Shown: positions 2,549-20,000 of the stretch, piece by piece | Layout of the letters: the number at the start of each line of letters is the position of its first letter | How positions within the stretch are numbered: position 1 is the first letter of the stretch | Source: Euglena gracilis | Lineage: Eukaryota | Length of the DNA stretch: 20,000 bases | Direction of reading: 5' to 3' | NCBI GenBank assembly: GCA_039621445.1 | Contig: CP154954.1 | Coordinates: 16,684,882-16,704,881 of the forward strand | Position numbers and translations under genes: made by a program | Notes under the pieces: model-generated | Told to the model about the DNA's origin: nothing | Databases searched by the model: none | The model's input: the letters and a program-made list of their open reading frames with translations, nothing else

Positions 2549-3223
2549 TAGTAAACCTATCCTATAACCCCCCCACGTATACCCCCCCCCTGGGCCCGAC
2601 CACCAAAGCGTGACTATAATCTCTAATAATAATAATAATTAATATACATATCCCCCCCCCTAGAGGGAAAAGTGGCTAAGACTTAGGCGGCGTAAATTGC
2701 CCATGACAAAATTGACTGAAGTGGCACCCGGAACAGTAGAAAAATGCTCCAAAAAACAGCCAAAATTTTCGAGTTGTGCATCAGGACAGAAATTTTTCAG
2801 CGTTATTGCGTATGTAACAGACGAAGCGGAAAACCGCTTCGATAATTTCTGAAATTTATTTTTAGTAGATTCACAGGTAAATACGAATAGTAAACCTATC
2901 CTATAACCCCCCCACGTATACCCCCCCCTGGGCCCGACCACCAAAGCGTGACTATAATCTCTAATAATAATAATAATTAATATACATATCCCCCCCCTAG
3001 AGGGAAAAGTGGCTAAAACTTAGGCGGCGTAAATTGCCCATGAAAAAATTGACTGAAGTGGCACCCGGAACAGTAGAAAAATGCTCCAAAAAACAGCCAA
3101 AATTTTCGAGTTGTGCATCAGGACAGAAATTTTTCAGCGTTATTGCGTATGTAACAGACGAAGCGGAAAACCGCTTCGATAATTTCTGAAATTTATTTTT
3201 AGTAGATTCACAGGTAAATACGA
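2549..3223 (+). repeat. Near-perfect tandem duplication of ~338 bp (2549-2886 and 2888-3223) spanning the left end of the element
   Basis: Copies differ only by two 1-nt poly-C indels and two substitutions (ctaagact/ctaaaact; atgacaaa/atgaaaaa). Confidence 0.95.
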
Positions 3224-4698
3224 CGCAGCAAAAAGGTTGCAGAAAACCTACCACAATCGACACACAACGAATGATGTCATCTGTCAAGCAGACACACAGA
3301 GACAGAAAAATAATATATACATAGCAAATACCTGCGAGCAACTAACGAATCAGTATAACAAGGAAATTTAAGTAAAATGCCGAATGAAGCGGAATACCTC
3401 TTCATCGACACCCAGAGTCGTGATATTACATTAAGTGCAACTGAATCAGAGGTAACAGGAATACATGTACAATTATGCTGTACAGGATAAAAAGGAGGAG
3501 AGACCACGTTGCACCTTTGTGATCAACTCGACCTGACACCGACGTTGGCCACCGTCGGTGTCGGTTGTTCCTGTGGGCTGCCGGGGCCGCAAGCGGCGGA
3601 AGCAGGCACCTGGCAGCCCCGTGGCTCCCCGCCTTGCACTGCCAGAGACAGACTGGTTTTAGGCCTAAACAGAATGAAAAACTAACATTTGAGGTTTGTG
3701 GTGCACTTGGCAGTTTGGTGGTTGTGTAGTGCGCGGAACAAATGCGTAGGTCCATGAGAAGCAGATAATGAATACAAAGCAAGCGGTTTTCCGCTTCCTT
3801 TGCACGTAATGGACACAATTTCACAAAAAGGGGAGAGGCTGGACCGGGTCCAATTCACTTCCCCGTACCCCTGAACGGTGCCCAGCCGTCAGGGGTTCAG
3901 TTACGGCTTTTGCTGGACCAGGCAGGCGAGCGTACAGTCCAGGCTCCCCGTTCATCGCAGTACATACGCGTTACGTAGTGTACGATGAATCTTGCGCATT
4001 GCACTTTGTGGTTCAGTCAAACGTTAAACGGTTAACAACATCGCGCATCGCATTGCAATGCGGACGAACGCACTCAGAATACAACGACAGAATGAACATG
4101 AAGCGGTTTTCCGCTTCTTTTTAATAAGATGAGCAATATGCTTAATGTCCATCGCGAGGTGAGGTACATAACTGTTTACCGGTTGCATGTACCATGAACA
4201 GGACACCAATCGTCATCTTAGCATCCAAATTGAAGAACTAAGTTACAGTGGTGTACCGAAGTCAAGATTGGTCCACTGCAATTCGTTGTGCACGTATCTC
4301 CGCCTGTGCTACGACACTTGCGCTGAGTTCATCGAGTCCATGAGAAGTCCTCTGCAAACATGACCTTGGCGGAGTTTTTATTATCAAAGTCAGGATGGAA
4401 GACAGTTTTATATGTCCAACAGATGAAAATGAAGCGGAAAACCGCTTCACCTACGCCTGAAATCGCGATGCCGTCTGTTCATACCGAGTGATGTGACCAC
4501 AAAGTACTACATTGTCCAGACCCCATGCATTCAGGTAGTTTAACTGAATGTGCTCTTCGGGCTGCCGCTGGCAATGGCCAGCAAAGGCCGTATGTGGCGG
4601 GGACTGCCCACCCCTCCCACGTACTGTCTGTGGTTCCCTACCAGTGACAGCCTCCTTTTTTGCTTTTACTGGAGGCAGCGGGAATCCACTTCATACGT

Positions 4699-4968
4699 GT
4701 GGGTAGCGACTGTGATCACCCAGGCAGTCGGGTTCATCAGTGCAGATTGGACTCAATTTGCTGGACGATGTTTACTTTCTGGTGCAGTGCTAAGTCACAT
4801 TGGTATGGACAGCTGAAGAAAGACGTGAGGTCAGTGTATATACCGAGATCAAGATACTACATACGCCTGTGATGTTGTGATTAGTTGGTTAGTCCGCAGG
4901 GCAGGGTAGTGACTGTGATCACGGCAGGCAGTCAAGCAAATGTGGGTAGTGACTGTGATCACCCAGGC
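4699..4968 (+). repeat. Three copies of a ~28-30 bp repeat GGGTAGYGACTGTGATCAC(CC/GG)AGGC
   Basis: Copies at 4699-4729, 4904-4933 and 4942-4968, each with a GTGATCAC palindromic core. Confidence 0.85.
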
Positions 4969-5452
4969 GGTTGTACCAAAAAAAACATGCATTAATTTAA
5001 AATGAGACAGAATAGGAAGCGTTTTTCCGCTTCCTGAAAAAATGGAAGAAAAAATACGTAAATCCAACCCTACGTTTCTGAATCGCGAGGTTTCTAACCG
5101 ACGTAAAATGGCAGTTGTACCACCAACCACATCAATTCACCATAAGTTCCTAGGTACTCGTGTTTTGGGAAGGATTTTACCTGACATCGCGCTCTGGATG
5201 CGCCCATTTTGAGAGACCAACGTCCTGTTGCACCCCCCGTTTCAAAATAAGAATACCCTTACCAAACAGCACCCCAAAAACAGCACTACCGTCCAAATGA
5301 AGCGGAAAACCGCTTCATAAATGAAACTATAAGCTATTTAACAAACAGTTCTGAGTTTAATGTGTTATAAACACCAGATTGCCAAGAGGAAGCGGTTATC
5401 CGCTTCCTTTTCTGTCAGTATATCCGTATCTGCCCATTGAAACAGAGAACAC

Positions 5453-8185
5453 ATGCCCGCTGTTGCATCGCCTGTCCAATTGGTCCTGAACATTCGGGGC
5501 CTTCGCGCCTATTTGCAACATGGCAGGCCTCGTTCGGGATGGGACCTATTTTACGATGCTTTCGTAGCTCGTCAAGTAGGTGCCCAAGCAATTGTTTCAC
5601 TGTGCTGCATGGTGCGGCTGAATCGACGTTCACGTCGCACAGTGGAAGCGGTGCGGGAGGCCTACATGCGGTCTTCGTCTCACCGTCCACGTTGGCTGGG
5701 ACAGCTCGCCACTGGGGCGTATGCTGTGTGGCGTACGCTGCATCGACATCGACATCGACATCGGCATCGACAGGCACAACCCCTTGCAGACCCCAGTACA
5801 GTGGCCGAGAACAATCCCAGCATGCGGGCACTGCAGCAGCTTCCGAGGGCAATGCGGAGAACTCTACGGCACACTGGCATGGTGGGTTGTACGGAGGTGC
5901 CGGTTGCAGCCCGGGCAGCAGTGGCGGAGCGGGACATCCTGGCCTCCCTGCGGAACCACCAGGTTGTCCTCTGGCTGGACAACTTCTGCTGGCTATGCTG
6001 GGGAACGGACCCGGCCACCCCAAACCTGAGCCAGAACCTCACTGCTTTTGGAACAGTGCAGGGTATAAATCATACTGATGTGTGCATGATTCAATGAATC
6101 ACTGGTTGGATCCTGAAGCAGTTAAGAATTAAACGACTTTCGGTGAATGGTAATGAAGCGGAAAACCGCTTCATTAATACTCAATATGTTTGCATGGTTG
6201 TTTGTGGTTCAACTGTAACAAGTAAATGATTCAGAAGCATGGTAACACCCGTACTTTGCACTGATGACGCTTTCTGCAGCTGGAGAACCTGTTGCACCGA
6301 CAGGGGACGAGGACACGTTCCTTGACCTTCCCGGTGTCTCCAGGACACCCAGAGCTGAGCGACCTGATTGGCAACTTGGAGGTGGTGGCGTCCTCCTGTT
6401 GTACCGCATCGTTGCTGCTGCACCAAGCCGTGGGTCGCATACAACGGATGCAGCTGACGGAGACGAGTATCAGGGTGCCGCTGGATGTGGCGCGGACCGA
6501 CATGCGGTCACTGCAGTGGCGTCCGCTGTCGCTGACCGAGCAGGTGGTGTTAGCCAACCTGGACCTGCTGCTGGTGCTGCAGACGGCGAAGTCACTGCAG
6601 CACCTCACTCGTCGCCAAACGCCTCTCCTGGTGGATGAGAACATCCACTACCGGTGTATGCGGCTGCTGTACTCTGCATCGGCATCGCGGTACTACGTGT
6701 CCCGCTATCTGGCCGAGGTCCCCCTGTTGTACGGCATCTGGCACGCGTACAAACACACGGTGATCGTCGTGTACCGGGCGTTCTTCCCGGTGCTGGCCCA
6801 CCTGGAGGTGTCCCCTGGTGACCACCACTTGACGTGCAGCCTGCGGAGCCACCGGAAAGTGCTGTACATGGAGAAGCTGTTTGCCAGCCTTCTGTTGTCC
6901 CGCGAGTCGGTCATGTCCCACTCTGAGTCGCGCATAGCACCAGGGAAGCGGTTTTCCGCTTGCTTGACGTTCACTGATGCAATTTCATGATGTATGTGAC
7001 ATGCTATCTGCGATTCAGTAGTCAACTGGCAACCAGAATGGGAGATTGGAGTCGCTCTGGGAGTACACGAGCTGAACAACAGCAGCAACTCCGGTCCTAC
7101 CTGTACCAGCTGCTGCAAGGGCTGTGGAACATCCTGGTCTTCTATGCCCCGGCCTTGCTGCACCTGGGACATGAGGTCCGACAGTGTACCTGGAGTGGTA
7201 GACCCGAGGACGAGGTGAAGGGCACCACCGTGCTGCAGAAGTGCCTCCTGCTGATGTTGCACCTGGAGCGCCTGATGAGTCCCGGAAGGCCGCCGCCCTT
7301 GGAGTACCAGCGGACCATCTCCCTGGCCCTGCTGGGGTGGCAGGACTGGATGTCCCGGCTGCTGGGCTGCGTGTTCGTGGAGGAGGCTGGTGAGGCCATG
7401 CTGTCGAGGTTGTCCTCTGCCTGCAAGCGGAATCCCCACGTGACCAGCTTCGAGGGTACGCTGCAGCTGTTCCTGAACCTCGGCGAGCCCTCCGGCAAGG
7501 CTCACCACAGCCGTGGCAGCCTCCGGAAGCAGCTCGTGCAGGAGATGGCACGTCGTGTTCGTGGCCTGCTTGGCAGCCCTGGTGACCGTCCATTTCCGAA
7601 GCGGGTGGACAGCACAACCGTACGGTGGCTGGTGGACCCAGAGACCTACCCCACCTGGATGGCACCGGAACCTCCACCAACGCGGATGACCACTGAGCAG
7701 CTGCTGCCCGTCCTGCGACACTCCGTGCAGACGCTGGTCCGAGGACAGCGCCTCGCTGCAGACGTGGAGGAGTGGTTCAGGACCAACGTGGGCACTGTTG
7801 ATCCAGATATTCTGCAAGAAAGAGAAGAGGCGATGTACCCCTTCCTCACGCGCAGAAGAAGCAGGGCTCCACAGCGGAACATCCTCTTCAGCGTCCAGAT
7901 GAAGCGGAAAACCGCTTGCACGACACGGATGAAGCGGATACCTGCTTCGATGTCAACTCAGCTGAGATGGAGGTGGCAGAGGCCTCGATCGTGGTGGGTG
8001 ACCAGGAGGAAGGCAGCAGTCTGTACGAGCCACCGGAGTCCCTCTACGAGCCGCCCGGTGACTTATCGGACGGCTACGTGTCCGTGGGGGCCTCCGACGG
8101 ATTGGACTGGCTGGGCTCACTGCAAGGCAGTGATATATCCGATGCTTCATCGGACGTATCCGTAGCAGTGGTGTGTAAATGCTGA
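5453..8185 (+). CDS. Putative RNase H-fold DDE transposase (Transib/RAG1-like motif order); spliced, 5' end unresolved, apparent frameshift near 7850
   Basis: GC3-rich exons ~5453-6050, 6269-6919, 7024-~7850 and an acidic tail in another frame to TGA at 8185. Removing introns 6051-6268 and 6920-7023 joins the frames (..TAFG-FLQLENLL..; ..SVMSQ-LATRM..). Motifs in order: VVLWLDNF, PLLVDENI, YGIWHAYKH, FVEEAGEAMLSRL. Confidence 0.6.
5741..5770 (+). repeat. (CATCGA)5 microsatellite within the coding exon, encoding HRHRHRHRHR
   Basis: catcga catcga catcga catcgg catcga. Confidence 0.9.
6051..6268 (+). other. Nonconventional euglenid-type intron
   Basis: CAG at +4..+6 (6054) and CTG at -8..-6 (6261); CAGTGCAGGGTAT pairs with GTACTTTGCACTG; excision preserves frame; contains palindrome 6155. 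Confidence 0.75.
6920..7023 (+). other. Nonconventional euglenid-type intron
   Basis: CTGAGTCGC..ATAGCA pairs with TGCTAT..GCGATTCAG; excision joins ORFs 6292 and 6987 in frame; contains palindrome 6945. Confidence 0.75.
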
Positions 8186-8545
8186 TTGCTGTTTGTGGGA
8201 GATTTCTGTTGTATATACGGTATTTGGGACACGTTGGGTTCACACGCTGGCTATTACTAACTAATACATAAGCAAATATGGGCATACCGGACCATGACCA
8301 CTACAGACAACAAGAAAAGGGATGCCTTTTTTAAACATGGTGCTGTTTGGTCCAGGTTGGCAGTGTAAAATGGAGAGTGTTTTGAAAACAACAAGCAAAA
8401 TCAAAAAAAATAACCAATTTTGTTGGGTTTTATAAGTTCTTTTTGGGAAATAAATGATGCAAATCCATTCAACTCAGCTTTATTTTCCACAGATTGGATG
8501 ATTATGTACATATTTTTCGATTTTTTTCTTCACAGACCAGTACAC

Positions 8546-11500
8546 ATGCCTGCGAAGAAGCTGGCGAAGGCAGACACCACGGGACAGTCGATCCCGAAGC
8601 TGCTGGAAGACGAGGAGATGTGGCTGCAGAGGGAACAGGGTTAGATTTGTGGTTCCTTTTGGTGAATGAACATACATTCTTCAATGAAGCAAACATTCAG
8701 AAGCATTGACAGATAAAAAATCACTTTGGTCAACTAATGAAGCGGAAACACTCTTCATTGCTGTGAATTGCATTATTTCTCCCACAAAAGAAATATATCT
8801 TAACTAACCCTGTAGTCGGGCAGCTGGTCCTGGACGTTGACCTGAGCCGGGGGCAGGTCCGGTGGCCCCGTCAGGAGCACGTGAACGACCTCATCACCGA
8901 GCTGAAGAACAATCCGCCGCAGGAGCTGGTGCTGACAGTGTGGCCGGAGAGAGGTGTCCACCAGCCCCCTCCATATTGTGTTTGTCGTTCCTGTGGATCA
9001 GACCCCCACACGTCAAGTTGGTTGTTTGCCGGAAGTGGGTTGGAACTTTGGACATGGGTTCTGTGTTTCTCTATTTCATCATATGGAAATCATCATGCGT
9101 TGTGTGGGGCAATGGATCGTTTCTGAATGTGTTCCCCTCTTCTCAGCTACGGGGAAGTGGGTCATCCTGAGTGGTCAACATCGTTTCCTGGCCGCGTCGG
9201 CCATCGCCGACGCCGCCATCGCCGATGCCCGGCGGCCGCCAGCCTTCACGGAGAAGTTCCGGTGCAAGGTGGTGAAGGAGAACACCAGCATCATCGAGCG
9301 CCAGCAGCTGGCCGGCAGGTTGCAGGCCATGGACGGCAACGTCATGGACATGACCCTGGCGGACCGCCTGCACTGGCTGCTGAAGGAGGACACCCACAAC
9401 CGGGAGATTGCCGAGGCGGAAGGGGTGGCGTACAACCCCACCAAGGCGGAGCTGTTGAAGAACGTGTACAGCAAGACGGGATGCCGCGAGACCGTGGACG
9501 GTGCCCTATGTTCTGTCGCCTATGGATGATTGTGCAGCCCAGAATGACTATATGATATTTGATGATTGATGGCATATTCAGTTTGTTGTCAGTTTGTTGT
9601 TGGTGGTTTTCAAATGCGATCGCAAAAGGAAGCGTTTTCCCGCTTCATTACCCTCCCGTTTTTAATTTTTAACCTTCTCAGGGTACGTGGGTCAAAGCCA
9701 TGATCCCGGTCACGGAGTGGGTGCTGCAGAGTGGGACCGAGGCTGTGGAGGTGGTGAAGAGGATGGAGGCCCGTGGTGGGGACCGTGTGTCCCCACACAC
9801 GTTCAAGTGCCTGGAGGCCATCTACCACCCGGACGACTACGCGGAGCTGGCCCAGGTGATGTTGGACGAGAAGTCCAAGCCCACCACCCAGCGGCTGGTC
9901 CAGTCTCCACATTTTGCATTCCACATCTGGCGGATGGTTATAAATCCCGAAAATAAAGAGGGACTTTTCATCAACAACGCAGACAGGAAGCGTGTTTCCG
10001 CTTTGTACATAAACTTTTTTAATTTTTAATGTATAATTGTGTTCATAGTGTTCACCCACTCATCCAAAATACAAAATGGAGTCTGCTGCCAGGCAGGAGA
10101 CGGCGAAGCTGGTGCGCCGCAGGACCTGGACGTGGCTGCTGCAGCACCCGGAGCTGGATGCCGACGTTCTTCACCCGACCAGAAGTGTGTGCTGTTTAAT
10201 TATTTGCATTAATCATATGCATGCACGTCTAAGAACTGCTGGCTTTCTCCATTTTTGATAACTGGTTCTTTACATGGATAAAATTCAGTCTGTATCATGA
10301 AGCGTTTTTCCGCTTCACTTTGCCAATTTGTGTTTTTTTTTGCAGAGGACCTGGCGCAGGTGGCCGCGCTGGAGACCGCCCTGCAGCCGGAGCACGTGAA
10401 GGTGCCGATGACCGGGGTGAAGTGGAGGTGGTCGCCCGAAGCCCCCTGTGCGGGGACCAACTTCTGATTTGTAAAAACAATTCTCGTTTCACAGCCTGGA
10501 GTGAATGCACCCCTCCCAGTGAATGCATGCACACCCCTCTCTGATGCGATGTCAGTTGTCCCCCGGCATTGGCCACCCGTCGAGGTAGTACGCCGCGCGC
10601 CGCTGTGGGCCGACCCCCTGTACGAGGGACTGAGGCAGCGGCTGCTGGGCCAGGTGATGGAGCCCGTCGTCAAGATCGGGGGCGTCTTCGGCACCCTGGA
10701 CCTGCACGGCATGAGCCTGCCTGGCCGTGGACCGTCAACGCCCGGCAAACCAAAGAAACCGGAGGAGGAGGTGTCCAGCACCCAGGAGATCTCCACGCCG
10801 GGCCGGGCCTCGGCCAAGCGGGCCGCCCAGCCTGAGGTGCTGAAGACCGGCCTCATCCACGTGGTGCCCATGCAGTCCACGGACAACGCCTGGCCGAAGG
10901 ACCTCCGTCTGCTGGACCTGGCAGCTGTGGTGGTGGAGGTGGAGCCCCAGCAGTTCGCCGACAATGACAGCGTGCATACCGAGGTGTTCAGGCTCATGCT
11001 GACGGGGGTGCCCATGATCGCCGTCGGGAGGGACATCGACCTGCGAGATCTCCAAGCGCGGCTGACGAAGATGCTGGCCAGTGAGATGACCGTCTTCCGC
11101 AAGGACATCGTCCTCTTCATCCCGCAGTCGGGGCCCGACCCGGACTGGATCTGGGCGCGAAGGACCCTGTCTGTGATCACCACGAACAAGAAGACGATGA
11201 AGGTGCACCATCTATTTTATTTTATGATGAAGCGGAAAAGCGCTTCCTGTTAATGAGAGCAGTTCTTTTCTTTTCTTGTCTATGTCATAGTGAATGCATA
11301 CATGTACATCGTACAAAACAGAAAATCCTTGTCCCTTCCCGTCGTAGGACCCCGGCCAGATCACCTTGCAGGGGATGCACCAGGTCCCGGATTGCACTTA
11401 GCATGCCAGTTAAGAATGTTGTCTTCAGTTTTCATACTTCAAGCATGAACTTGTGTCCCTGTTGTTGAGGGCAGTGTCAACCAACCTCGTTAGTTTTTGG

Positions 11501-12665
11501 CGATGTCTGTTTTGAAGTGCAACCCGGTGCACCTGACGTTGCCCATCTTGTTCCTGTGGAGGTCGTCTGGTGGTTCCTGCGGCGGCTGGAGGTGGCCACC
11601 ACTGACTGGGTGATGGTGCTGAGTTCCCGACCGGTGCTGTCCGCCCAGCTGGCCGTGCGGGCGGGCAGCGCCATCAACCTGCTGTGGGGCGTGCCGGCCC
11701 TCCCCTCCGACGACGCAGAGGCCCAGCAGCACTGCCTGGAGGACATCGGCCGCGAAATGAGGGTGGCCGACGGGCTACCGCCGTTGATCTGGGTGCAGGG
11801 TGGCCCAGGCTTCTGTCTCTTACTTTCACCGAACTTTAATTTCACATGGTTTGTCATTTAACGAATGCAAAAGGAAATCACCTGGTTCATTCTATGTCTT
11901 TTTTTCTGGATTTAACAATTGAAGCGTAAAACCGCTTCAAATTACTTTGCTTAAATTTTTTTTGCTGTTTTGTATCTGTATTCCAATTCCCTTCTGATTC
12001 CGGATAAAATAATTTCATTGGGTTGCCTTGTGGTCAAGGACGTCCACCTGAGGATCGTACGCCACCTGGCCCTGAACGTGTCCGGGTACATCCCGGAGGG
12101 GACGGAGCCGGCCCCCGCACCACCGACGGAGGAGGAGCCCCCGTCCAAGCAGAGCGGCCGGGACCCGAAGGAGTCCAAGTCCAAGGAGACCAAGGAGTCC
12201 CAGGACAAGCCCAAGGAGAAGGAGACCAAGGACAAGCAGGACAAGAAGACCAAGGACACGCCCAAGAAGGGCGCCCGGGGGAAGCAGTCCGCCTCCTCGC
12301 AGCAGCCGGCCCGGCACTCCTACGAGTCGTCCCCGGAACCGCCTGAGCGCCCGACACACAGGGAACGGCCTAATGGTGGATTGTCTGTGATGATCGTATG
12401 TCCTGTTTCGATTTTGGCAGTAATTTCACAATTCTGTTTGATGAAGAGTTTTTCCGCTTCCTTATGATTAAAGTCAGAGTAATTTTCCTAAGATTGGAAG
12501 TGCGTTCACGTTCTACTATAAATTGGTTCCGCTGCGATGCAACACAATGGTATCTAATCAAAACCGTTATCTGCGTTCCACGCCTCCCGTTTGCGCCGCT
12601 CCCTGTTGCCGAGGAAGCGGTCCGCCCTGGAGAACATCCAGGAGATGCTGGTGGACGACGAGTGA
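8546..12665 (+). CDS. Multi-exon protein with N-terminal ParB/Sulfiredoxin-like domain, helical region, possible degenerate methyltransferase-like segment and K/E-rich low-complexity tail
   Basis: Exons approx. 8546-8639, 8816-8953, 9147-~9500, ~9685-9903, 10085-~10166, ~10348-~10445, ~10573-11202, 11348-11391, 11525-11792, 12036-12355, 12611-12665 (TGA 12663-12665). Spliced N-terminus reads GQVRWPRQEHVNDLITELKNNPPQELVLTVWPER-ATGKWVILSGQHRFLAA, matching the ParB N-terminal pattern R..(V..L...L)...hhhxGxHR..A. Strong GC3 bias in exons against AT-rich introns. Confidence 0.75.
8640..8815 (+). other. Conventional GT-AG intron
   Basis: GT at 8640, CTAAC branch-like site at ~8804, AG at 8814-8815; phase 1 on both sides; contains palindrome 8739. 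Confidence 0.7.
8954..9146 (+). other. Conventional GT-AG intron interrupting the ParB-like domain
   Basis: GT at 8954, pyrimidine tract and CAG ending 9146; phase-compatible (WPER-A-TGKW). Confidence 0.75.
9904..10084 (+). other. Nonconventional euglenid-type intron
   Basis: R|Y...Y|R junctions; CCA (+4..+6) pairs with TGG (-8..-6); CTCCACATTTTGCATT pairs with AATACAAAATGGAG; frame preserved; contains palindrome 9987. Confidence 0.7.
11203..11347 (+). other. Conventional GT-AG intron
   Basis: AAG|GT at 11203, TAG ending 11347, phase 0; contains palindrome 11229. Confidence 0.7.
11793..12035 (+). other. Intermediate-type intron (GT start, non-AG end, paired termini)
   Basis: CAGGGTGGCCCA (11796-11807) pairs with TGGGTTGCCTTG (12019-12030) using G-U pairs; length 243 keeps frame (LPPLIW-KDVHLRIV); contains palindrome 11921. 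Confidence 0.65.
12356..12610 (+). other. Nonconventional euglenid-type intron
   Basis: CAG at 12359 and CTG at 12603; ACAGGGAACGGC pairs with GCCGCTCCCTGT; excision gives ..PERPT-RKRSALENIQEMLVDDE*; contains palindrome 12443. Confidence 0.75.
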
Positions 12666-13928
12666 GCGGGCGGCTGCGGCGGCCGCGGTGGCAGCGGGCG
12701 GCTGGTGCCGCCAGCGAGGGAGGGACAAGCGAGACCCAGACCCAGACCGGACCAGACCCATACCCACACCCAGACCCAGTCCCCAATCATGCGCACACCT
12801 TCGCCACACCACACCCACCTATTTCGCTGTTTTCTTTCCTTTGTGTTTGCCTTTGGCATGGCTGCGGAACTGGGGGCTGTGGGGTTTGCTCCAGCTGTGA
12901 CCTTTGTTTTGAGAATCAAAGTTACAAACCCACAACTTGCTCGGTTTAGGTTCTTTTCTTCGTGATACAATGCATCTTCTCAATATTGTTTGATGCGGGA
13001 TTCACGTTTGTTGGTTAGTTCAAGTTTGGCATATGTCATTACATTCAACATTCAGTTGGCTCAGTGATGTTGGCAATGTACTTAATTTGGGACCAGTACA
13101 ATACAGTTTGTTTTGGACTTATTTCCTTCTCTCCGATTTGAGGAAGCGGAAAACCGCTTCATCGTTTTCATGATTGTTTTTGCAGGTTTTCCCTCCTACC
13201 CGCTTACGATGGCCCAGTACCTCAAGTGCGGACTTTGACTACAGGTCTGTATCGTTCTGTGTCTTACATTTGTATACCATTTGTTGTGGCTGTAATGTCT
13301 TCTGGGAAATGTACTAGTTAAACTTAATGCCAATGACTACTACTGAGTGCGTGCGGTTCATCACACCCCTCCGGAAATGCTGAACGAATGTATGTTGACA
13401 TTATTATTCACTGTTTGAAATGCATACCCTTCCATCTGATTTGTCCTATAATTTTACCGTTTCTCATTAAAGCGGTTTTCCGCTTCCTTTTCGTTTTTGG
13501 AAAATTTTCTTGACTTTGCATTGCTAATCCGTTAGGTATGATTCTTCCGGTGTCGATTTCGGTGACATGTGAATGATTTTGAAGCGGAATGTCATTTTTA
13601 CCGCTTCCTATATTTTGTATTTATTATTTTCCCCCTTTTGCAGGGGGTTTCGCCTTCTTCTGTCTCCGGCGGCAGCCGACATGAGGTGTGTATTTGCACT
13701 TTATTGCTGTCTTTGAAATTTCTGTAGGGTTTTCGTTCATTTAGACTAAATTTCAAAAATTTAGTGCCATTTCAGGTGGTTTTGGGGTTTTCTAAAACTT
13801 CGTTACTGCAAGCCAAACGTCCAATCAGAAATGGCCGAAATCGGTACCTCTTCTAAAACCTTCAAAAAAAACAGGCCGTTTTTGGAAGCGTTTTTCCGCT
13901 TCCTTTTCCGTTTCGAGGGGGTTTAAAT

Positions 13929-14032
13929 TTTTGGGCAGTTTATGCCTCCTAAGTAAGAAGCAAGTGGCAAAAAGGGCGTGGTGGGCATGCCAATTTATGA
14001 GGTTTTGGCCAAAACCATAAAACTGCCCAAAA
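13929..14032. repeat. Nested inverted repeats at the right end of the element
   Basis: TTTTGGGCAGTTT (13929-13941) vs AAACTGCCCAAAA (14020-14032); perfect palindrome GGTTTTGGCCAAAACC (14001-14016). Confidence 0.8.
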
Positions 14033-14109
14033 TCCCTTGTTTTACCCTCCTGGTGCAAAAATAGAGGGAATTTTTGGACCCGTTTTTGGCCACACACGAA
14101 ACCTTGACG

Positions 14110-14177
14110 TATAACCCCCCCAACCCCCCTTGGGACCGACCACCAAACAGGAACCTATAACCCGGGGGGGGGTTATA
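14110..14177. mobile_element. Miniature inverted-repeat element (TATAACCCCCCC...GGGGGGGTTATA)
   Basis: Terminal inverted repeats; internal TGGG(A/C)CCGACCACCAAA shared with the sequences starting at ~2563 and ~2902. Confidence 0.55.
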
Positions 14178-14250
14178 AGTAGGGGGGGTTGCACTTCTGC
14201 TGCAGGAAACTGAGGAAATTATCACAAATTTGGCCATTTGGCAACATAAA

Positions 14251-14668
14251 CCCCCCCAATTAGAAGCCCCCCCCCAAATAACAACCCCCCCCCAAATAGA
14301 AGCCCCCCCCCTCAGGTTTCCCGCCAAAAATCCAAATAACAGCCCCCCCCCCTCCCCCGGCAAAGCTGGGGGAAATTTGACGAAAATTTTTCCGAAAAAT
14401 GGTGAAAACCTCGAAAATTCTCCATGAAAAAAGGTCAACATTGGGAACGAAATTGATATCTGGTATCCTTGAAACATGGCCTATCCACACAAAAACTAGA
14501 AAAAATGAGTCTTGCAAATTTTTAAACTTGGACCCCGTTCGATCCCCGGATCGACCGCCGGCTGAAGTTTTTCCTTTAGACAAAGGGTACCCAATTAGAA
14601 GCCCCCCCCCCTCGGGTTTTCCGCAGAGTGACCGAATAGTAGCCCCGGGGGGCTTCTAATTGGGGGGG
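14251..14668. mobile_element. MITE-like element with ~22-bp TIRs CCCCCCCAATTAGAAGCCCCCC
   Basis: 14251-14272 is the reverse complement of 14647-14668; internal AAT(T)AGAAGCCCCCC copies near 14295 and 14594; non-coding interior. Confidence 0.7.
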
Positions 14669-15044
14669 GGGGTAGGTGTAAGCTTTGAGCCGTTATTCAC
14701 AGTTTTTCCAACAAAAAGGTCCAAAAAACATGCTTCTTGTAAATTTGGAAACATGCTGATTCTGGAAATGTGGAATTTCTTGATCCAAAACTGCCAAAGA
14801 GAATTGCGAAAACTTTGGTCTCGGGTAAAACCTGGTCCAGGATGTGAAATTCTTCTTGGGAGGAATTATTTCCCAGCAGAAATCGGGGGGGAAATCTAAA
14901 AAAGGCCGAGAAATTGCCAATTTTTTGACAATATTTGTAAAATTAAGCAAATTTGGCAAATTTGCAACAAAATAACAAACAAGAGCACCTGGGTTCCCTT
15001 GTGAAAGGTTGTCGGAACTCATTTCACCTTCCATTTCAGGTTTA

Positions 15045-15180
15045 TGCGGAAAATTGCGGAAGGGGAAAGAAATTGTTGAAAAATTTCGGAAAATTGCAGA
15101 TAAATGCGGGAAATTACGGAATTTGTGGAAAAATTGTGGATACCCATTTCCTCCTGCAAAAATGCAAAAAAATTGGTGCA
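15045..15180 (+). repeat. Degenerate GGAAA(A)TTGC(G/A) array, related to 2457-2510
   Basis: Repeated GAAAATTGC(A/G)G-like units at both locations, on either side of the central element. Confidence 0.6.
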
Positions 15181-18100
15181 AAGAGCCGGAAGGAAAAATT
15201 TGACTTTGGGGGGGGCGGGTACCCCCCCCCGCATTCAGTCCGGACCCCCTTGGCAGGTGGGGAGGTCCGTCCAGGAGGGGGGGACACCCCCACCTAAACC
15301 ACGCCTAAACTACCCACACCTAAACACCCCCACCTAAACTACGCCCTCCTTCTATCGAACCCTGCCTTGGGGGGTCCGGCGAAACCACCCCCTACCCCCC
15401 CCCCCAGGTTGGGTATAGAAAGAATTGTGGGTGGGTCCACTTCTGCTACCGCTGCTGCCATTCCACAGACTGCTCCCAGTCAGGTCTGGCTTCAGGGTAG
15501 GAGAGCCCAATGGCGTGCTGGGTTTCCCACCCGCCGTTCTCTGCTCTGCGGGAGAGGATATCGTATAACAAGGCCCATGGCAGGATTGCCGGTGAAATGA
15601 GCCGCGCATCGGAGGTGGGACATTGCACAGCAGCACCCCACTGAGGTGTAATGGGAGTATCGTGCGGCTTTACAGCTCCACAGGGGGGAAAGAGGGAACC
15701 CTGGGGGGGGGTCAAAAGAGGGTGTGACCTTCCTGAAAAGCCTGGATTCCTTGTTGATACCAGGCAATTGTTACGTGCATTAACACTAATCTCTTAACTG
15801 TTCGTTGACACATCTCTCTCTCTCTGCCTGTTTGTTAGTTTGTTTACAGGTTTTTCTGTCTGGTTGGCTGTCTGTCAGTATGTGTGAAGGTCAGGGGCCC
15901 ATTCACTTAGACTCATTCACTAGGCTCGAAAAAAAATGCAAAAAAAAAACGACAAACAAGCGCTAAATTGAAAACAAATAAAAAACTGCAGTATGCCCAG
16001 AAAGGAAATTGCATCCCCAGAAATGTAAAAAAAAAATGCACAAGGGAGATAAATTGATCGAAAGATAACTGCAAAGCGAAGCAAAGAAAAAAGAATGTCA
16101 ATTGTGAAAGGAAAAAGGTGAAAATCACAAAAAAGTGAAAATTCCCTCAAAAACTGCTCAAAACTGCACAATCTGTATTTTTTGCAAAAAAAAAATGCAA
16201 AAAAAAGGTTAAAATGTACAGCACATCCCTCTCCGCTGTCTGTCTGTGTGCCTGTCTGTGCATCTATTCTCAGGGCGTCGCTCAACAACCCCTGTCAGGG
16301 GCAACGCCCCCAAAGCCCTCACCACATCCGGGACGGTGTTGCACGCAGTGAGACGCCGCCTCTTCGCCATAGGCACAGCGTGCGTGTGGCAACAACGGCC
16401 AATTCTAACCCAAAAACAAGACCCCCTGCCGGTTTTGAGCAAAAATCCAAAACTAGACCCCAAAAAACAATCCCTCGGGATGTTTGGGGGAAATACAAAA
16501 ATGGACTCCCCAAAAAAACTGTGAAAATGCCCCCAAAACGGAGTATTTTGGACGTGTTTGATTTTGCCCACCAGTTTTTTGAGGTAATTTTTCGCTCACC
16601 AGCAAGAGCCACTCTTTTTTGGACTTCTGTTTGGACCCCCCCCCCGCGCAGGAAGGTTTTCTGCTGCCGAAATTTCAGCAAAAATAAAGCAAACAGACCC
16701 CCCGAAAAAAGAGCACCCCATTGGGATTTTCAGCAACGGACCAAAATGCGCGCCAACATCTTGGGGAAACTGGTATGCAGAACGGTTTGTGCATGGGCGC
16801 AGACGAACAGCATGTTCAAAGGACACTGATGATTACCACAACCCTAGAAGGTTTTCGGACGTGATAGGTGTGTTGGTGCGCGCATTTGCGCAAACCAAAT
16901 TTCTTTGTTGGTGCAAATGCGCGCACGAACATTTAATCATTCACTTCAAAATAGTGCGTTGTGCGAGTCTTAGCACACACAAACAAAATTTGTTTGTAGG
17001 CGCAAATACGTGCACGAACACATATCAGTCGTGCGATACCATCTCCTGGTCTGTGGCGGTCTGTGACGTGCGAACGCAGTTCCGCACGCCAGCCATTGAT
17101 TTGCACCACGACTGTGTGGTGATGAAATTTGTGGTGTGAAGCAGTGCATAATGTTCACTTGAACACGTCATCTGACGTGCGAACATTTGCCTGCCTTAAT
17201 GTGCGAACATTTGCACTGCTGTTCCCCGGCCCACACGGCCGGACTGTTCGACGCTTTTTCTGCAACAGTACTGCGTTACAAGAAGCAGAATTCAAAAATT
17301 TGGTACCTGAAATACCCGGATGCGTCGGGCCGAAACCCATTTTCTGGCTTCTCCACCGTTTCTCTTGAAACGCACCAGTTTTGCGCATGGTTTGTGGGTG
17401 GTAAGTCCCACCGCTTTCATGCAACCAATCGAGTGGTAAAGGTTCAACACTTCCTGTGCCCAAAGAAACGGGTGTTTGGGGCTACCTTTCTCCAGCAGTT
17501 GGTTGCCATGAACTAGCACCACGCCGTCCCCCCAGTCTCACGCCCTAGTTGTGGGGAATAGCGTGGCCGCTTTGGTGGGTGCTTTTGCGCTGGGGAGGTC
17601 GATGCCAGCCTGTTTTTAGTGTTCTGAAAAATAAAGTTTTTTTCGGGCCTGGGTCAGTCAAGAAAAAAATCCAAAAATAAGACCCCCCATAAATAGGAGG
17701 TTCCCAGCAACGGACCCAAAGACGGGCATCTTATTTTGGGGATGGGGGGGAGGGGTTAGGTCGTTGTAGGTCACTGTCAGCTCATTGTGTACCCACTGAA
17801 TCCTTGGGTACGGATTGTGCACCGTATGGTGGGCTGCCGCCTTCCTGGGCGACATGGGGGGAGGTAGGCTGGGACCCATCAGAGGGGGATCAGAGGCAGG
17901 CAGACCCTCACAGCGGCATCAGTTGCCCGTCTGTCAGAGCATCTGCCTGACCGCCATGTACCTCAGGCCATGGGGGTGCGGTGTGGGAGAGCGACACCTC
18001 AGCGATGATAATGCCGGGCTCTGCCAGTGAGACAGTCCCACCCATGCAGTCGCTTAGCTTGAATGAGTGGCAGGCAAGCACCCATGGTCATCCAGAATCC

Positions 18101-19858
18101 CAGACCCAGTCATACCCATCACTCACATCCACGCCATGCCAGTCATGTCAGTCACGCCCAGTCATTTCATAGGTATTTGGTGGCAGGCACGCCTTGGGGA
18201 GGTACGATGGACAAGTTCGGGCCAAAAACACAAGCCCCCCCCCCAAAAAAAGACAAAAGAAGGCCAAGAAACGTCTTGTCAAAATGGTTGAGAGCTTTCC
18301 CCAAATCAACAGAACAAAAAAAGCAGTCAGGGTATGCATCAGCAACCTTGCATGTCCCCACATCCCATGGCATGGCGCAGGGATGGGCGGACGAGTGGCG
18401 CCGACGGGCCCGCCGACGGGCCCGCCGCCCAGTCACCCTGGGGGCCCCCGGTGGGTCGAAATCCACAGTGTGGTGGGCCACAGTCCAGCAGCCCGGGGGC
18501 CGGCGGGGGCTCTGGCGCAGGGAGGGAGCTGGCAGCCCTGTCCTCCGAAGGCGCATGCCTGCAGCGCAACACGCTTACTAACCCCGGGAGGCACAGCCCA
18601 ACAACAACGTTCCAGGGATATGTCGTTGACACACGGGGCACTGGAAGCATTTTGTTTGAACGGCGGGGAGAAGGGCTTTCCATACGCGATGCCTTCCCGG
18701 GGAGAACTAGTGATGAATTCTCAACCCCCCCTTGTCCAACAACCATCATTATTCTCCAACTTTCTTTGGCTCAGTTCAGCCACTTTGGCCACTTTTTTGG
18801 CCATTCTTTGGCCACTATTGCCATTCTTTAGTCACCGTTGTCCATTTTTGCCCAGCCTTTGGGAGACTTTGGCCGTTTTCACGATATTCATGCACACTGT
18901 GTACAAGCATCCATAAGAAAAATCAGCTTTTGGGAAAATTATTCCATTTTGGTCAATTTTGCCCATTTTGGGTAATTTTTAAACCGTTTTCGGCAGGGCA
19001 TCGGCCTTTTTCTTCGACATTTTTGGCATTCTCAGCCATTTCTTGGTGGCTTTTGCCACGTTTGGGGGGGGGGGCTGAAAAAAAATTCCGAAACTTATGG
19101 AATCAACAACGCGTCCAAAAAAAACACATATTTGACCTGGGGGGGTGTTCGTTGTACAAGCCCAGTTGCTGGGGGGGGGGTAAATGGTTTTTGTCATCCA
19201 TCAGGCAAAATTCCGAACTATTCTTACAAAACTGATTATTTGTCAGGTGTTCAATTGTCCACATCTATCAATATCGAGCAAACCTAACTTTGGGGCGCAT
19301 GGGAAGCCGGTCTCGTCCAAAAAAAAACACTTCTGCTTCTTCCTCTTTCAGATCCTCAACACTGAATCCAGCCAGACCTCCTCCTTTTTTGCCAGCCAGC
19401 CAGCCGCGGCTAGCCGCGGCTAGCCAGATACCCCAGCTCCATACTTCGGTGGGTGGGGCCTTTTCCAAACCCCCTTTATCTTCAGTGCAATGGCTCCATT
19501 TTCATTTGCACTTTCATCTCTCAGGTTTTTCTCCCTCCACCTTAGTCTTCATGCCAAGTGGGATGTCAAGCCCGTGGTCTGTAAAGGTGTGCTATTCCCC
19601 ATGAATGCAGATTGTGTAGTGCAATTTGGAGTGGTTCTTGGGTTTTCATAAAGGCATTTTCAAATTTCATAAATTTCATAAATTTTAAATAAAAAAATAA
19701 TTTCAAAATAAATTCTCATAAATAAAAAAATTCAAAAATTACTGTAAGTTACTGTAAGTTACAGCTGTGTAATTTATAAATCTTAAATTACGCAAAATTC
19801 ACATAGTCCCAACATGTGCCCAGGCACTGCCCCGACTCACACAGGGGGCGTTTGGCCG

Positions 19859-19917
19859 GACCAACCTAGCCGGCTGGCAGACCAACCTAGCCGGCTGGCA
19901 GACCAACCGAGCCAGCC
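19859..19917 (+). repeat. 21-bp tandem repeat GACCAACCTAGCCGGCTGGCA, two exact copies plus one partial
   Basis: 19859-19879, 19880-19900, degenerate 19901-19917. Confidence 0.85.
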
Positions 19918-20000
19918 AACATGCCGGCTGTCCAACCGTCCGTCCAGATGAAAGCCACTGTCGCTCCACGAGAGCCGCTGTCACGCTCGCGCCCAGCTAT

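Follow-up and report, generated by a model that had tools for sequence, protein, structure and literature searches.

This locus raises the question why one short palindrome recurs through some 11 kb of sequence, and whether it acts as double-stranded DNA, as RNA or not at all. In the window (the whole 20,000-nt stretch of DNA that was analysed), the motif GAAGCGG-N4-CCGCTTC (search pattern GAAGCGGNNNNCCGCTTC) occurs 24 times with at most two mismatches, between 2823 and 13902, compared to 0.10 occurrences on average, and never more than 2, in 200 dinucleotide shuffles; the coordinates are the same as in the initial annotation, which had counted about 24 copies. Eight copies are perfect, twelve have one mismatch and four have two, and no excess of matches was found at 3–5 mismatches, so that a tail of decayed copies was not seen. 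A 25th copy (13581-13607) has both arms intact and a spacer of 13 nt. The copies at 2823 and 3160 derive from one 337-bp tandem duplication, leaving 23 independent copies. The flanks (1-2700 and 14001-20000, 8.7 kb) contain no match at up to three mismatches, and all half-site heptamers in the window lie within 2800-13920 (18 of 18 for GAAGCGG, 17 of 17 for CCGCTTC), in agreement with the earlier description of the motif as element-restricted, a restriction that is measured against these 8.7 kb of flanking repeats only. The palindrome is a genuine cis-element of its host, a cut-and-paste eukaryotic DNA transposon of about 11 kb whose two genes contain introns and lie on the + strand. The transposon has the following features:

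2549..3223: 337-bp tandem duplication, 2 units, 98% identical; contains two motif copies and two candidate left TIR copies
3018..3040 (also 2681-2703), + strand: candidate left TIR; 19/23 bases equal the reverse complement of 13932-13954; seen in one element copy
5453..8185, + strand: gene A, DDE transposase; exons 5453-6055, 6280-6950, 7019-7892, 7967-8185
6056-6279 (224 nt), 6951-7018 (68 nt), 7893-7966 (74 nt), + strand: predicted introns of gene A, frame-keeping GT..AG read from the sequence
8547..12665, + strand: gene B, orphan; about 10-11 exons with approximate boundaries; possible ParB N-terminal-like domain in exons 2-3
13932..13954, - strand: candidate right TIR; pairs with 3018..3040 at 19/23

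Gene A was delimited by tblastn of P0001-P0003, which gave four blocks in frames 2, 1, 3 and 2, with splice sites inferred from the sequence. It matches proteins of 754–811 aa with 46–50% identity and belongs to a large, unnamed family with 914 cluster representatives. By predicted structure (AF2 model, pLDDT 82.8), the best fold is that of the P element transposase (Z 10.1, 285 aligned, rmsd 5.0), followed by Hermes (Z 8.6; Foldseek probability 0.98) and then by Tn5, ISCth4, Transib and RAG1; D181, D327 and E403 are invariant. Judged by this model, gene A encodes a DDE transposase with a fold closest to the P-element and Hermes transposases, with which it shares an RNase-H-like DDE core and a large helical insertion domain. 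It differs from both in its low identity to them (8–9%) and in having no Pfam match to either superfamily, and no THAP or BED finger was seen in gene A. Gene B was traced with a crude codon-usage path model, which failed on gene A, and its frames were checked by translation. For exon 3 of gene B, the nearest Atlas clusters carry ParB_N or DUF6551 (0.89–0.92) and the ten best named matches fall into one family/clan, which hints weakly at a ParB N-terminal-like domain in the product; HMM, homologue and structure comparisons gave no support to the ParB-like reading.

The full consensus of the motif is a 22-bp palindrome, A-[T/G]-GAAGCGG-AAAA-CCGCTTC-[A/C]-T (A-K-GAAGCGG-AAAA-CCGCTTC-M-T), and its copies are distributed as follows:

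2823..2840: A-loop, perfect; unit 1 of the 337-bp tandem duplication
3160..3177: A-loop, perfect; unit 2, duplicate of 2823
3386..3403: AATA spacer, 1 mismatch; 5' non-coding
3780..3797: T-loop, 1 mismatch; 5' non-coding
4100..4117: T-loop, perfect; 5' non-coding
4431..4448: A-loop, perfect; 5' non-coding
4675..4692: GAAT spacer, 2 mismatches, weakest of all; 5' non-coding
5016..5033: T-loop, G7>T; 5' non-coding
5299..5316: A-loop, perfect; 5' non-coding
5389..5406: TTAT spacer, arms without mismatch, 11-bp stem; begins 64 nt 5' of the gene A ATG
6155..6172: A-loop, perfect; middle of gene A intron 1
6945..6962: T-loop, 1 mismatch; overlaps the gene A exon 2/intron 2 boundary
7901..7918: A-loop, 1 mismatch; inferred 74-nt gene A intron 3, also within two open frames
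7931..7948: ATAC spacer, 1 mismatch (G-T pair); gene A intron 3, 30 nt after the 7901 copy
8739..8756: AAAC spacer, 2 mismatches; gene B intron 1
9629..9646: T-type, G7>T; gene B intron 3
9987..10004: T-type, 2 mismatches; gene B intron 4
10299..10316: T-loop, G7>T; gene B intron 5, acceptor ~30 nt downstream
11229..11246: A-loop, C12>G; gene B intron 7, donor ~25 nt upstream
11921..11938: A-loop, G7>T; gene B intron 8
12443..12460: T-loop, 2 mismatches; gene B intron 9
13143..13160: A-loop, perfect; 3' non-coding
13469..13486: T-loop, 1 mismatch; 3' non-coding
13581..13607: 25th copy, 13-nt spacer between intact arms
13885..13902: last copy, T-loop, G7>T; 30 nt inside the candidate right end

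The initial annotation had described a fixed 4-nt spacer of AAAA or TTTT. The length holds for all 24 copies and the sequence for 17 of them (nine AAAA, eight TTTT), whereas seven copies deviate at one or two positions (AATA, GAAT, TTAT, ATAC, AAAC, TTTC and GTTT) and the 25th copy departs from the length as well. By the majority letter of the spacer, there are 13 A-type and 11 T-type copies, and both orientations are mixed within the + strand genes. The arm mismatches that had been noted at 5016, 9629, 11229 and 12443 are present, and the symmetry does continue beyond the core: after loop-normalised alignment, 21 of 23 copies have A as the second base outward on one side, 15 of 23 have T at the equivalent place on the opposite side, and at the position adjoining the core T/G is paired with A/C. 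Covariation of these outer pairs is not significant (43–77 of 500 shuffles reach the observed level; p = 0.07 in a separate test).

Around the palindrome, the sequences are unrelated, as had been claimed: local alignment of the 60-nt flanks gave a mean score of 7.14 compared to 6.91 for shuffled flanks, with equal 95th percentiles. Twenty-odd identical 22-mers in unrelated sequence must be the product of copying and not of independent evolution, and because the flanks share nothing, it must be the short unit itself that was copied. Such copying could have been functionless. A neutral 22-bp mini-palindrome may have spread in a master copy through some accident or mechanism of DNA copying, for example template switching at hairpins, short-patch conversion or action of the transposase on a tiny two-arm substrate, surviving where it was harmless, in non-coding sequence. 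We regard this explanation as rather unlikely, although it accounts directly for identical 22-mers amid unrelated flanks, which need copying, and for a Poisson-like mismatch spectrum of about 0.8 per 14 positions, as after a single burst; one burst of insertions, now ~6% diverged, fits the mismatch distribution equally well. It also agrees with an A4 spacer whose rate of change does not exceed that of the more variable arm (9/92 versus 16/161 cells), with the resized spacer of the 13581 copy, and with substitutions that have the look of strand-biased decay, G>T making up 9 of 20. A precedent are the selfish palindromes of Volvox carteri organelles, short palindromes with A/T loops of 3–5 nt (TAAA/TTTA) in intergenic DNA and non-ORF parts of introns, which are similar to the transposon motif in their loop and their avoidance of coding sequence (PMC2670323). 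The Volvox repeats are organellar, 14–79 nt long, nested and make up ~80% of non-coding DNA (PMC2670323), whereas the transposon motif lies in nuclear DNA, has a fixed length, occurs as single copies at even distances and is limited to one element. A spreading mini-palindrome is further opposed by the 8.7 kb of repeat-rich flanks without any copy, by the lack of nested or length-variable copies with one exception, and by the missing tail of decayed relics. The initial annotation had itself considered an independent mini-repeat with its own target-site duplications; none were found around the motif, equal flanking dinucleotides occurring in 4 of 23 copies, all of them AT/AT, which is itself palindromic.

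The covariation analysis that had been proposed for the motif yielded no compensatory change: the core retains sequence identity and not pairing, with a change on both sides in 0 of 7 core pairs and 18 unpaired compared to two G-U cells. This bears on two structural explanations. Extrusion of cruciforms or hairpins from DNA, raised already by the initial annotation, might create hot spots of replication, recombination or repair without a dedicated protein, and several copies do combine perfect arms of 9–11 bp with a 4-nt spacer. However, uncompensated mismatches are tolerated, structure needs no fixed sequence and yet the arm sequence is invariant, and arms of 9–11 bp extrude poorly in relaxed DNA; we consider this explanation highly improbable. 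Alternatively, a hairpin in the primary transcript, with a stem of 7–9 bp and a tetraloop, could mark the pre-mRNA of the element for efficient splicing, for nuclear retention or export, or for protection from RNA-based silencing. The hairpin was predicted in all six motif-containing stretches that were folded (five intronic, one upstream of gene A), three of which beat their shuffles (z -3.1 to -3.8). The lack of compensation argues against it, as do the mixture of A- and U-loop forms in one transcript and the absence of a match among the Rfam families searched, and stems of 7–9 bp are too short for Dicer-type processing. A trace of strandedness is present nevertheless: G7>T is found in 6 of 11 T-loop but in 1 of 12 A-loop copies (Fisher p = 0.027), and on the + strand nine G>T stand against two C>A substitutions. 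Both observations point to a strand-aware process and suggest that the transcribed strand may matter; an RNA hairpin seems improbable to us all the same.

No copy lies inside predicted CDS; ten lie upstream, 11 in introns and 4–5 downstream, and the GC content of the 60-nt flanks is 0.29–0.47 for 20 of 24 copies compared to 0.60–0.62 in exons. At least one copy is present in 10 of 12 predicted introns, including the two shortest (68 and 74 nt), a count that is approximate because the exon boundaries of gene B come from the codon-usage model; two introns are empty compared to 6.2 under random placement (P = 0.005; 0.009 if the 11 intronic copies are taken as given). In the 5' part, the spacing has a CV of 0.30 (P = 0.0006), or 0.39 with the duplicate excluded (P = 0.009). 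Copies were said to be mostly 300–900 bp apart, which is true of 16 of 23 intervals (the others are 226, 244, 283, 930, 956, 90 and 30 bp), and their placement is more even than random, contrary to the expectation for a neutral mini-palindrome. About one copy per intron would suit an RNA hairpin, as would the copy at 6945..6962, in which the inferred donor GT (6951-6952) falls at the arm/spacer junction and the left arm forms the end of exon 2, as judged from the reading frames. It would also suit relics of introners, i.e. short insertions that made the introns and of which the palindrome remains, nearby cryptic GT/AG being used for splicing. The two shortest introns consist mostly of motif, the 74-nt intron holding two copies and the 68-nt intron starting inside one, and the introners known from Amoebophrya and other protists carry direct as well as inverted repeats, resembling the motif as repeats with inverted repeats tied to many introns (PMC7789003). 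Both explanations are weakened by the 13 of 24 copies outside predicted introns, in 5' and 3' non-coding sequence. The distance of the motif to donor, branch region or acceptor is variable, a point against the RNA hairpin. Introners have inverted repeats at the intron ends, direct repeats across the boundaries and related sequence over whole introns (PMC7789003), whereas here a compact palindrome away from the intron ends is the sole common sequence, direct repeats at the boundaries are absent and half of the copies are not intronic. The homologues that are apparently intron-free give no evidence of intron gain because their ~3-kb source contigs may be transcripts. An origin of the motif in introners is quite doubtful.

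The explanation that we tentatively favour, while holding it for possible rather than probable, is that the array consists of DNA-level binding sites for an element-encoded protein. The motif would act on double-stranded DNA as docking sites of a dimeric protein. Candidates for this protein are the gene B product, with its possible ParB N-terminal-like domain, and the gene A transposase, through its helical N-terminal part. The initial annotation had preferred a dimeric site over an RNA hairpin, and this preference stands in part: missing compensation, both orientations, copies outside introns, variable distance to splice sites, lack of an Rfam match and even placement favour it, whereas a plain symmetric dimer site predicts neither the asymmetry of changes between the arms (4 versus 16, p = 0.012) nor the equal rate in the spacer nor the orientation-linked G7>T. 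Even placement and the lack of a decayed tail are compatible with maintenance, and the copies may be kept by selection. To our knowledge, known binding-site arrays of transposons are subterminal and not spread throughout introns, which counts against a docking array.

Comparable systems exist in parts. CACTA arrays contain motifs in both orientations. CACTA (En/Spm-type) elements are, like the present one, large multi-intron DNA transposons with a transposase, a second protein and a reiterated short motif, which is a cis-determinant bound by their own DNA-binding protein TNPA, whereas here a binder is only proposed (PMC2613891). The CACTA motifs are non-palindromic, ~12 bp long and located in the subterminal few hundred bp, unlike the 22-mers that occupy the whole 11 kb with about one copy in each intron; no Transposase_21/TNP2 match was obtained for gene A, and no CACTA termini were seen at the candidate element ends. 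Papillomavirus E2 sites (ACCG-N4-CGGT) are inverted half-sites with an A/T-rich 4-nt spacer, present in multiple copies per genome and bound by a dimer. They are similar to the motif in their short inverted half-sites, fixed A/T-rich 4-nt spacer and many copies on one genome, but they are 12 bp long and clustered in a control region, which the transposon motif is not, and there is no sequence or protein relationship. The OB operators of plasmid RK2 are scattered along the plasmid in many copies, comparable to dispersed parS sites. From these palindromic sites acts the ParB-family protein KorB, a dimer that is element-encoded and acts at a distance, so that a mobile element with a scattered short palindrome is common to both systems (PMC11790492). 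Gene B, with its hints of a ParB N-terminal domain, lacks HMM support for this likeness, and a ParA-like partner was not seen in the transposon. KorB functions in bacterial partition and repression, whereas the transposon has introns and resides in a eukaryotic nucleus.

An element-wide array of palindromes with about one copy per intron is a layout that we have not found described for such transposons. If the array is indeed bound by a protein, an end-to-end protein coat could serve transposition, by pairing or compacting the long element, or, alternatively, damp the element's own transcription.

A search of the whole window for GAAGCGG-N4-CCGCTTC with at most two mismatches yielded 24 sites, 8 of them perfect, 12 with one mismatch and 4 with two, compared to a mean of 0.10 and a maximum of 2 sites in shuffled sequence. 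The sites span 2823 to 13902 and coincide in all coordinates with the approximately 24 copies described in the initial annotation; the palindrome array is real and well past chance. The 4-nt spacer, which had been proposed to be fixed and to give each copy an orientation, reads AAAA in 9 and TTTT in 8 copies, and the variants in the other 7 carry one or two changes. Classified by the majority spacer letter, the copies comprise 13 of A-type and 11 of T-type. Since the copies starting at 2823 and 3160 are parts of one 337-bp tandem duplication, 23 copies are independent. One more copy, the 25th, starts at 13581 and combines both arms with a spacer of 13 nt. Intervals between neighbouring copies range from 30 to 956 bp and cover the whole element, and 16 of the 23 fall within the previously suggested 300-900 bp. 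When all copies were turned to the A-spacer orientation, the consensus was the 22-bp palindrome A-[T/G]-GAAGCGG-AAAA-[C/A]CGCTTC-[A/C]-T. The common sequence stops at these 22 bases: alignment of 60-nt flanks gave a mean score of 7.14 compared to 6.91 for shuffled flanks, with the same 95th percentile, in line with the unrelated surroundings noted before. The repeat-rich flanks of the element (1-2700 and 14001-20000, 8.7 kb) contained zero matches with up to three mismatches and none of the window's 18 GAAGCGG and 17 CCGCTTC half-site heptamers, so that the reported restriction of the motif to the element holds in comparison with those flanks alone.

The host of the array is an autonomous-type eukaryotic DNA transposon of approximately 11 kb on the + strand with two genes, gene A for a DDE transposase and gene B for an orphan protein. 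The features referred to in the following are listed here by window position.

Features of the element
2549-3223, no strand assigned: 337-bp tandem duplication of 2.0 units with 98% identity, so that one motif copy is present twice, as are a C-run segment and the candidate left terminal repeat
3018-3040 (duplicated at 2681-2703), + strand, versus 13932-13954, - strand: candidate terminal inverted repeats, 19 of 23 bases matching in the one element copy compared
5453-6055, 6280-6950, 7019-7892 and 7967-8185, + strand: exons of gene A, delimited by the only GT..AG introns that join the tblastn blocks in frame
224, 68 and 74 nt in length (the last at 7893-7966), + strand: introns of gene A, predicted from the reading frames
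8547 (ATG) to 12663-12665 (stop), + strand: gene B, about 10 exons from a crude codon-path model, boundaries approximate

The candidate terminal repeats bracket the motif array and lie just outside its first and last copies. Four RNA sequencing runs with the same species label contained 14, 24, 14 and 71 reads on the window, mostly 95-99% alike, and no splice joints were seen among these few reads (14-71 per run). DNA runs contained 34-43% of the words sampled from the window, and we read these data as a multi-copy, weakly expressed family. The flanks are rich in runs of 8-11 C or G bases (around 1200 and 2170, and at 14100-14660, 15200-15400, 18233-18259 and 19050-19076) and contain short repeated units such as CCCCCCCAAATAGAAGCC, present in 3.4 copies at 14251-14311, with related pieces on both sides of the element and in both orientations; they probably represent a separate repeat family that hosts the element. 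At 16871-16931, an inverted repeat has 28-nt arms with 86% complementarity and a 5-nt gap, and Rfam returned only weak miRNA-like rows for 16862-16943 (27 bits compared to a gathering threshold of 70).

GC-rich blocks (0.60-0.62) alternate with AT-richer stretches along the + strand. The product of gene A is 46-50% identical to proteins of 754-811 aa, and tblastn with its homologues detected four blocks in frames 2, 1, 3 and 2. The codon-path model trained on gene B failed on gene A, and the exons of the latter were therefore taken from homology. The family comprises 914 cluster representatives at E≤0.001; none of the 24 long members examined and none of the exons in the window matched Pfam. 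An AlphaFold (AF2) model built from 31 sequences (pLDDT 82.8, pTM 0.75) had its closest solved folds in the P element transposase (VIA Z 10.1, 285 residues, rmsd 5.0) and Hermes (Z 8.6), followed by further transposases and integrases (Tn5, ISCth4, Transib and RAG1), and the Foldseek top ten consisted of Hermes and the P element with probabilities of up to 0.98. D181, D327 and E403 are unchanged across the 31 family sequences, and H363 and E530/531/534 are likewise invariant (numbering of the homologue P0002). Judged from these fold matches of the model and the invariant D181/D327/E403, gene A encodes a cut-and-paste transposase with RNase-H-type DDE fold from an unnamed family, which seems to form an unclassified superfamily of eukaryotic DDE transposases or a deep branch. 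The transposase was absent from the viral contigs and prokaryote genomes searched. Contigs of the relatives P0008-P0166 are mostly 2.7-3.4 kb long, with a few of 4.3-6.6 kb. The prevalent size is that of a single mRNA or a short one-gene element, and these contigs may be either DNA or cDNA; we therefore dropped the argument that intron-free relatives indicate a recent origin of the introns. In exon 1 of gene A, CATCGA is repeated 5.3 times (5741-5772), encoding a His-Arg run.

For gene B, no homologues of exon 3 or exon 7 were found, Pfam, PHROG and NCBIfam gave zero matches, and sequence matches in the PDB stayed at noise level. By eye, exons 2-3 resemble the N-terminal domain of ParB/Srx, including a GQHR-containing stretch, and the neighbours of exon 3 in a protein language model (Atlas) were clusters with ParB_N or DUF6551 (0.89-0.92). 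The putative domain is interrupted by an intron, so the exon pieces were searched separately, and a single-sequence AF2 model of exon 3 alone reached a pLDDT of 56.8. The possible ParB-like N-terminal domain is a lead, not a finding. A 24/51-nt repeat at 12167-12266 in gene B encodes a Lys/Glu/Thr-rich stretch.

Within the element, ten copies precede gene A, eleven fall into predicted introns (6155, 6945, 7901 and 7931, and one in each of seven gene B introns), and three follow gene B, where the 13581 variant is also found. Coding sequence contains no whole copy. The sole overlap is the left arm of copy 6945, which forms the end of exon 2, with the inferred donor GT at the junction of arm and spacer. 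Copies 7901 and 7931 share the 74-nt intron of gene A and fall within two open frames as well, so that their intronic status depends on the frame change demanded by homology. Ten of the 12 predicted introns contain a copy, and only 2 were empty compared to 6.2 if copies are placed at random within the non-coding DNA of the element (P=0.005; P=0.009 when conditioned on eleven intronic copies), counts that rest on predicted splice sites and on approximate exons of gene B. In the 5' part, the spacing was more regular than random, with a CV of 0.30 (P=0.0006), which rose to 0.39 (P=0.009) when the duplicated copy was left out. The 5' non-coding part also contains further hairpins. One has a 10-bp stem free of mismatches around an 8-nt loop (3535-3562), and another is a 31-mer built around GTGATCAC that is repeated after 243 bp with 94% identity (4698-4728 and 4941-4971). 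Among the non-coding stretches of the element that lack a copy, the longest is the 381-bp gap between the stop of gene A and the ATG of gene B (8166-8546), with copies 7931 and 8739 as neighbours.

Tentatively, and at somewhat less than even chances, we regard the motif as an array of DNA-level docking sites for a putative dimeric, element-encoded protein. Such sites would occupy the only DNA able to accommodate a 22-bp palindrome, which includes almost all of the introns.

Hairpins at the motif appear in predicted RNA folds, and a function of the copies as RNA structures has to be weighed against that of a DNA site. In the alignment of 23 copies, two-sided changes were found in 0 of 7 core pairs, with 18 unpaired and 2 G-U cells. 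Covariation of the four outer pairs stayed within shuffles, 43-77 of 500 of which reached the observed values, and the first outer position is paired in 13 of 23 copies compared to 9.3 expected (p=0.07). The sequence and not the pairing is therefore conserved, which answers the covariation check called for in the initial annotation. A-loop and T-loop orientations furthermore both occur within one direction of transcription, more than half of the copies lie beyond predicted introns, and Rfam had no match at the motif; we consider an RNA hairpin quite unlikely, and nothing specific supports an RNA role. A cruciform-type element, in which the palindrome would act as DNA structure, is highly improbable. 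The earlier preference for a protein site over a hairpin thus gains from the lack of compensatory pairs and the presence of both orientations, whereas the differences between the two arms and between the orientations do not fit a simple symmetric site. Within 6925-7018, the 3' end of exon 2 (6925-6939) can pair with the last part of the 68-nt intron (7001-7016), so that the stem encloses the motif hairpin (MFE -37.3 kcal/mol, z -3.77). This stem enclosing the intron could bring the splice sites together, or be due to chance.

Independent evolution of identical 22-mers in unrelated surroundings is impossible, so the palindromes must have been copied, and the docking-site reading competes with that of a neutral mini-palindrome that copies itself. 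The distribution of mismatches fits a single burst with about 6% divergence equally well, and several features argue against a simple interpretation as a symmetric site under selection: substitutions are no more frequent in the spacer than in the more variable arm, the arm on the 5' side of the A-spacer carries 4 changes compared to 16 in the other arm (p=0.012), the G-to-T change at core position 7 is found in 6 of the 11 T-loop copies and in 1 of the 12 A-loop copies (p=0.027), and on the + strand G>T exceeds C>A by 9 to 2. These asymmetries, which are explained in part only, suggest a transcription-linked mutation bias on the + strand or copying that preserves orientation. However, MITE-like mini-repeats have a target-site duplication at each copy, and no such duplications were seen here: equal flanking dinucleotides, which might have marked the independent mini-repeat considered in the initial annotation, occurred at 4 of 23 copies and were all AT/AT, itself palindromic. 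The absence of copies from the flanks, the even placement and the lack of a tail of decayed relics also speak against a free-living repeat. Beyond two mismatches, there were 2 matches with three, both of them located in exons (expected: 0.4), and 6 with four (expected: 3.7). We hold a neutral mini-palindrome to be doubtful, yet the strongest of the competing explanations. Scans for the exact motif detected at least 118 metagenome loci and 5 viral loci. All 123 listed matches are single copies even with a relaxed pattern, tblastn and blastn found no kinship of these loci to the element, and they probably represent chance matches or bacterial terminators.

The frequent location in introns could also suggest relics of introners, i.e. 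that the copies arrived together with the introns. This is very unlikely, because the introns are not alike along their length, with flank alignments at the level of shuffled sequence, and because 13 of the 24 copies lie outside predicted introns. In relation to the predicted splice sites, the palindrome is internal and variable in position rather than confined to the intron ends, being found at the donor, in mid-intron or 30-150 nt before the acceptor.

Several other explanations were rejected. The outermost two copies are complete palindromes with opposite spacers, which does not fit abutted transposon ends or an insertion target with a 4-bp duplication. Excision footprints of the hAT type would duplicate flanking sequence and not one fixed 22-mer, and sites for a host repressor would be shed by the element instead of being kept in 25 copies.

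In a more specific and unlikely version of the docking-site reading, the element would be a eukaryotic transposon with its own ParB/parS-like system. The putative gene B protein would load as a dimer on the approximately 25 palindromes, with one site in each intron and a spacing of ~300 bp in leader and trailer, and coat or bridge the 11-kb element, so that the distant ends might pair for transposition or the promoter might be shut off. As coding sequence has no room for a 22-bp palindrome, introns may have been kept, or even created, as parking places for the sites. The likeness to ParB-parS and KorB-OB lies in the many copies of one short palindrome (24 and one variant) on a single element.

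Transposon ends with repeated binding motifs are known. CACTA/En-Spm elements encode a TNP2-type transposase (Pfam Transposase_21), whereas gene A is without any Pfam match, and CACTA-type arrays concentrate subterminally, while the copies described here run from end to end (2823-13902). The TNPA motifs of CACTA (PMC2613891) and the KorB operators of RK2 (PMC11790492) are akin in logic to the proposed docking sites, but the array described here is spread end to end. Introners of Amoebophrya (PMC7789003) and palindromes in Volvox organelles (PMC2670323) are further cases for comparison. A literature search with the exact sequence retrieved the motif from no paper of the collection searched. Topic searches yielded no account of a transposon whose introns each carry a palindrome, nor of an autonomous element in which a single palindrome is arrayed evenly from end to end and occurs in nearly all introns.

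Either way, the motif is a ready test object that requires one oligonucleotide and two candidate proteins, the gene B product and the transposase. If it is a neutral mini-palindrome, it would be a rare nuclear case of hairpin-repeat spread confined to one element. If an element-encoded protein binds the sites, they would reveal a way in which a long transposon arranges its DNA, introns would gain a use at the DNA level, and the array would point to a partner for a transposase family with 914 representatives and no Pfam match.
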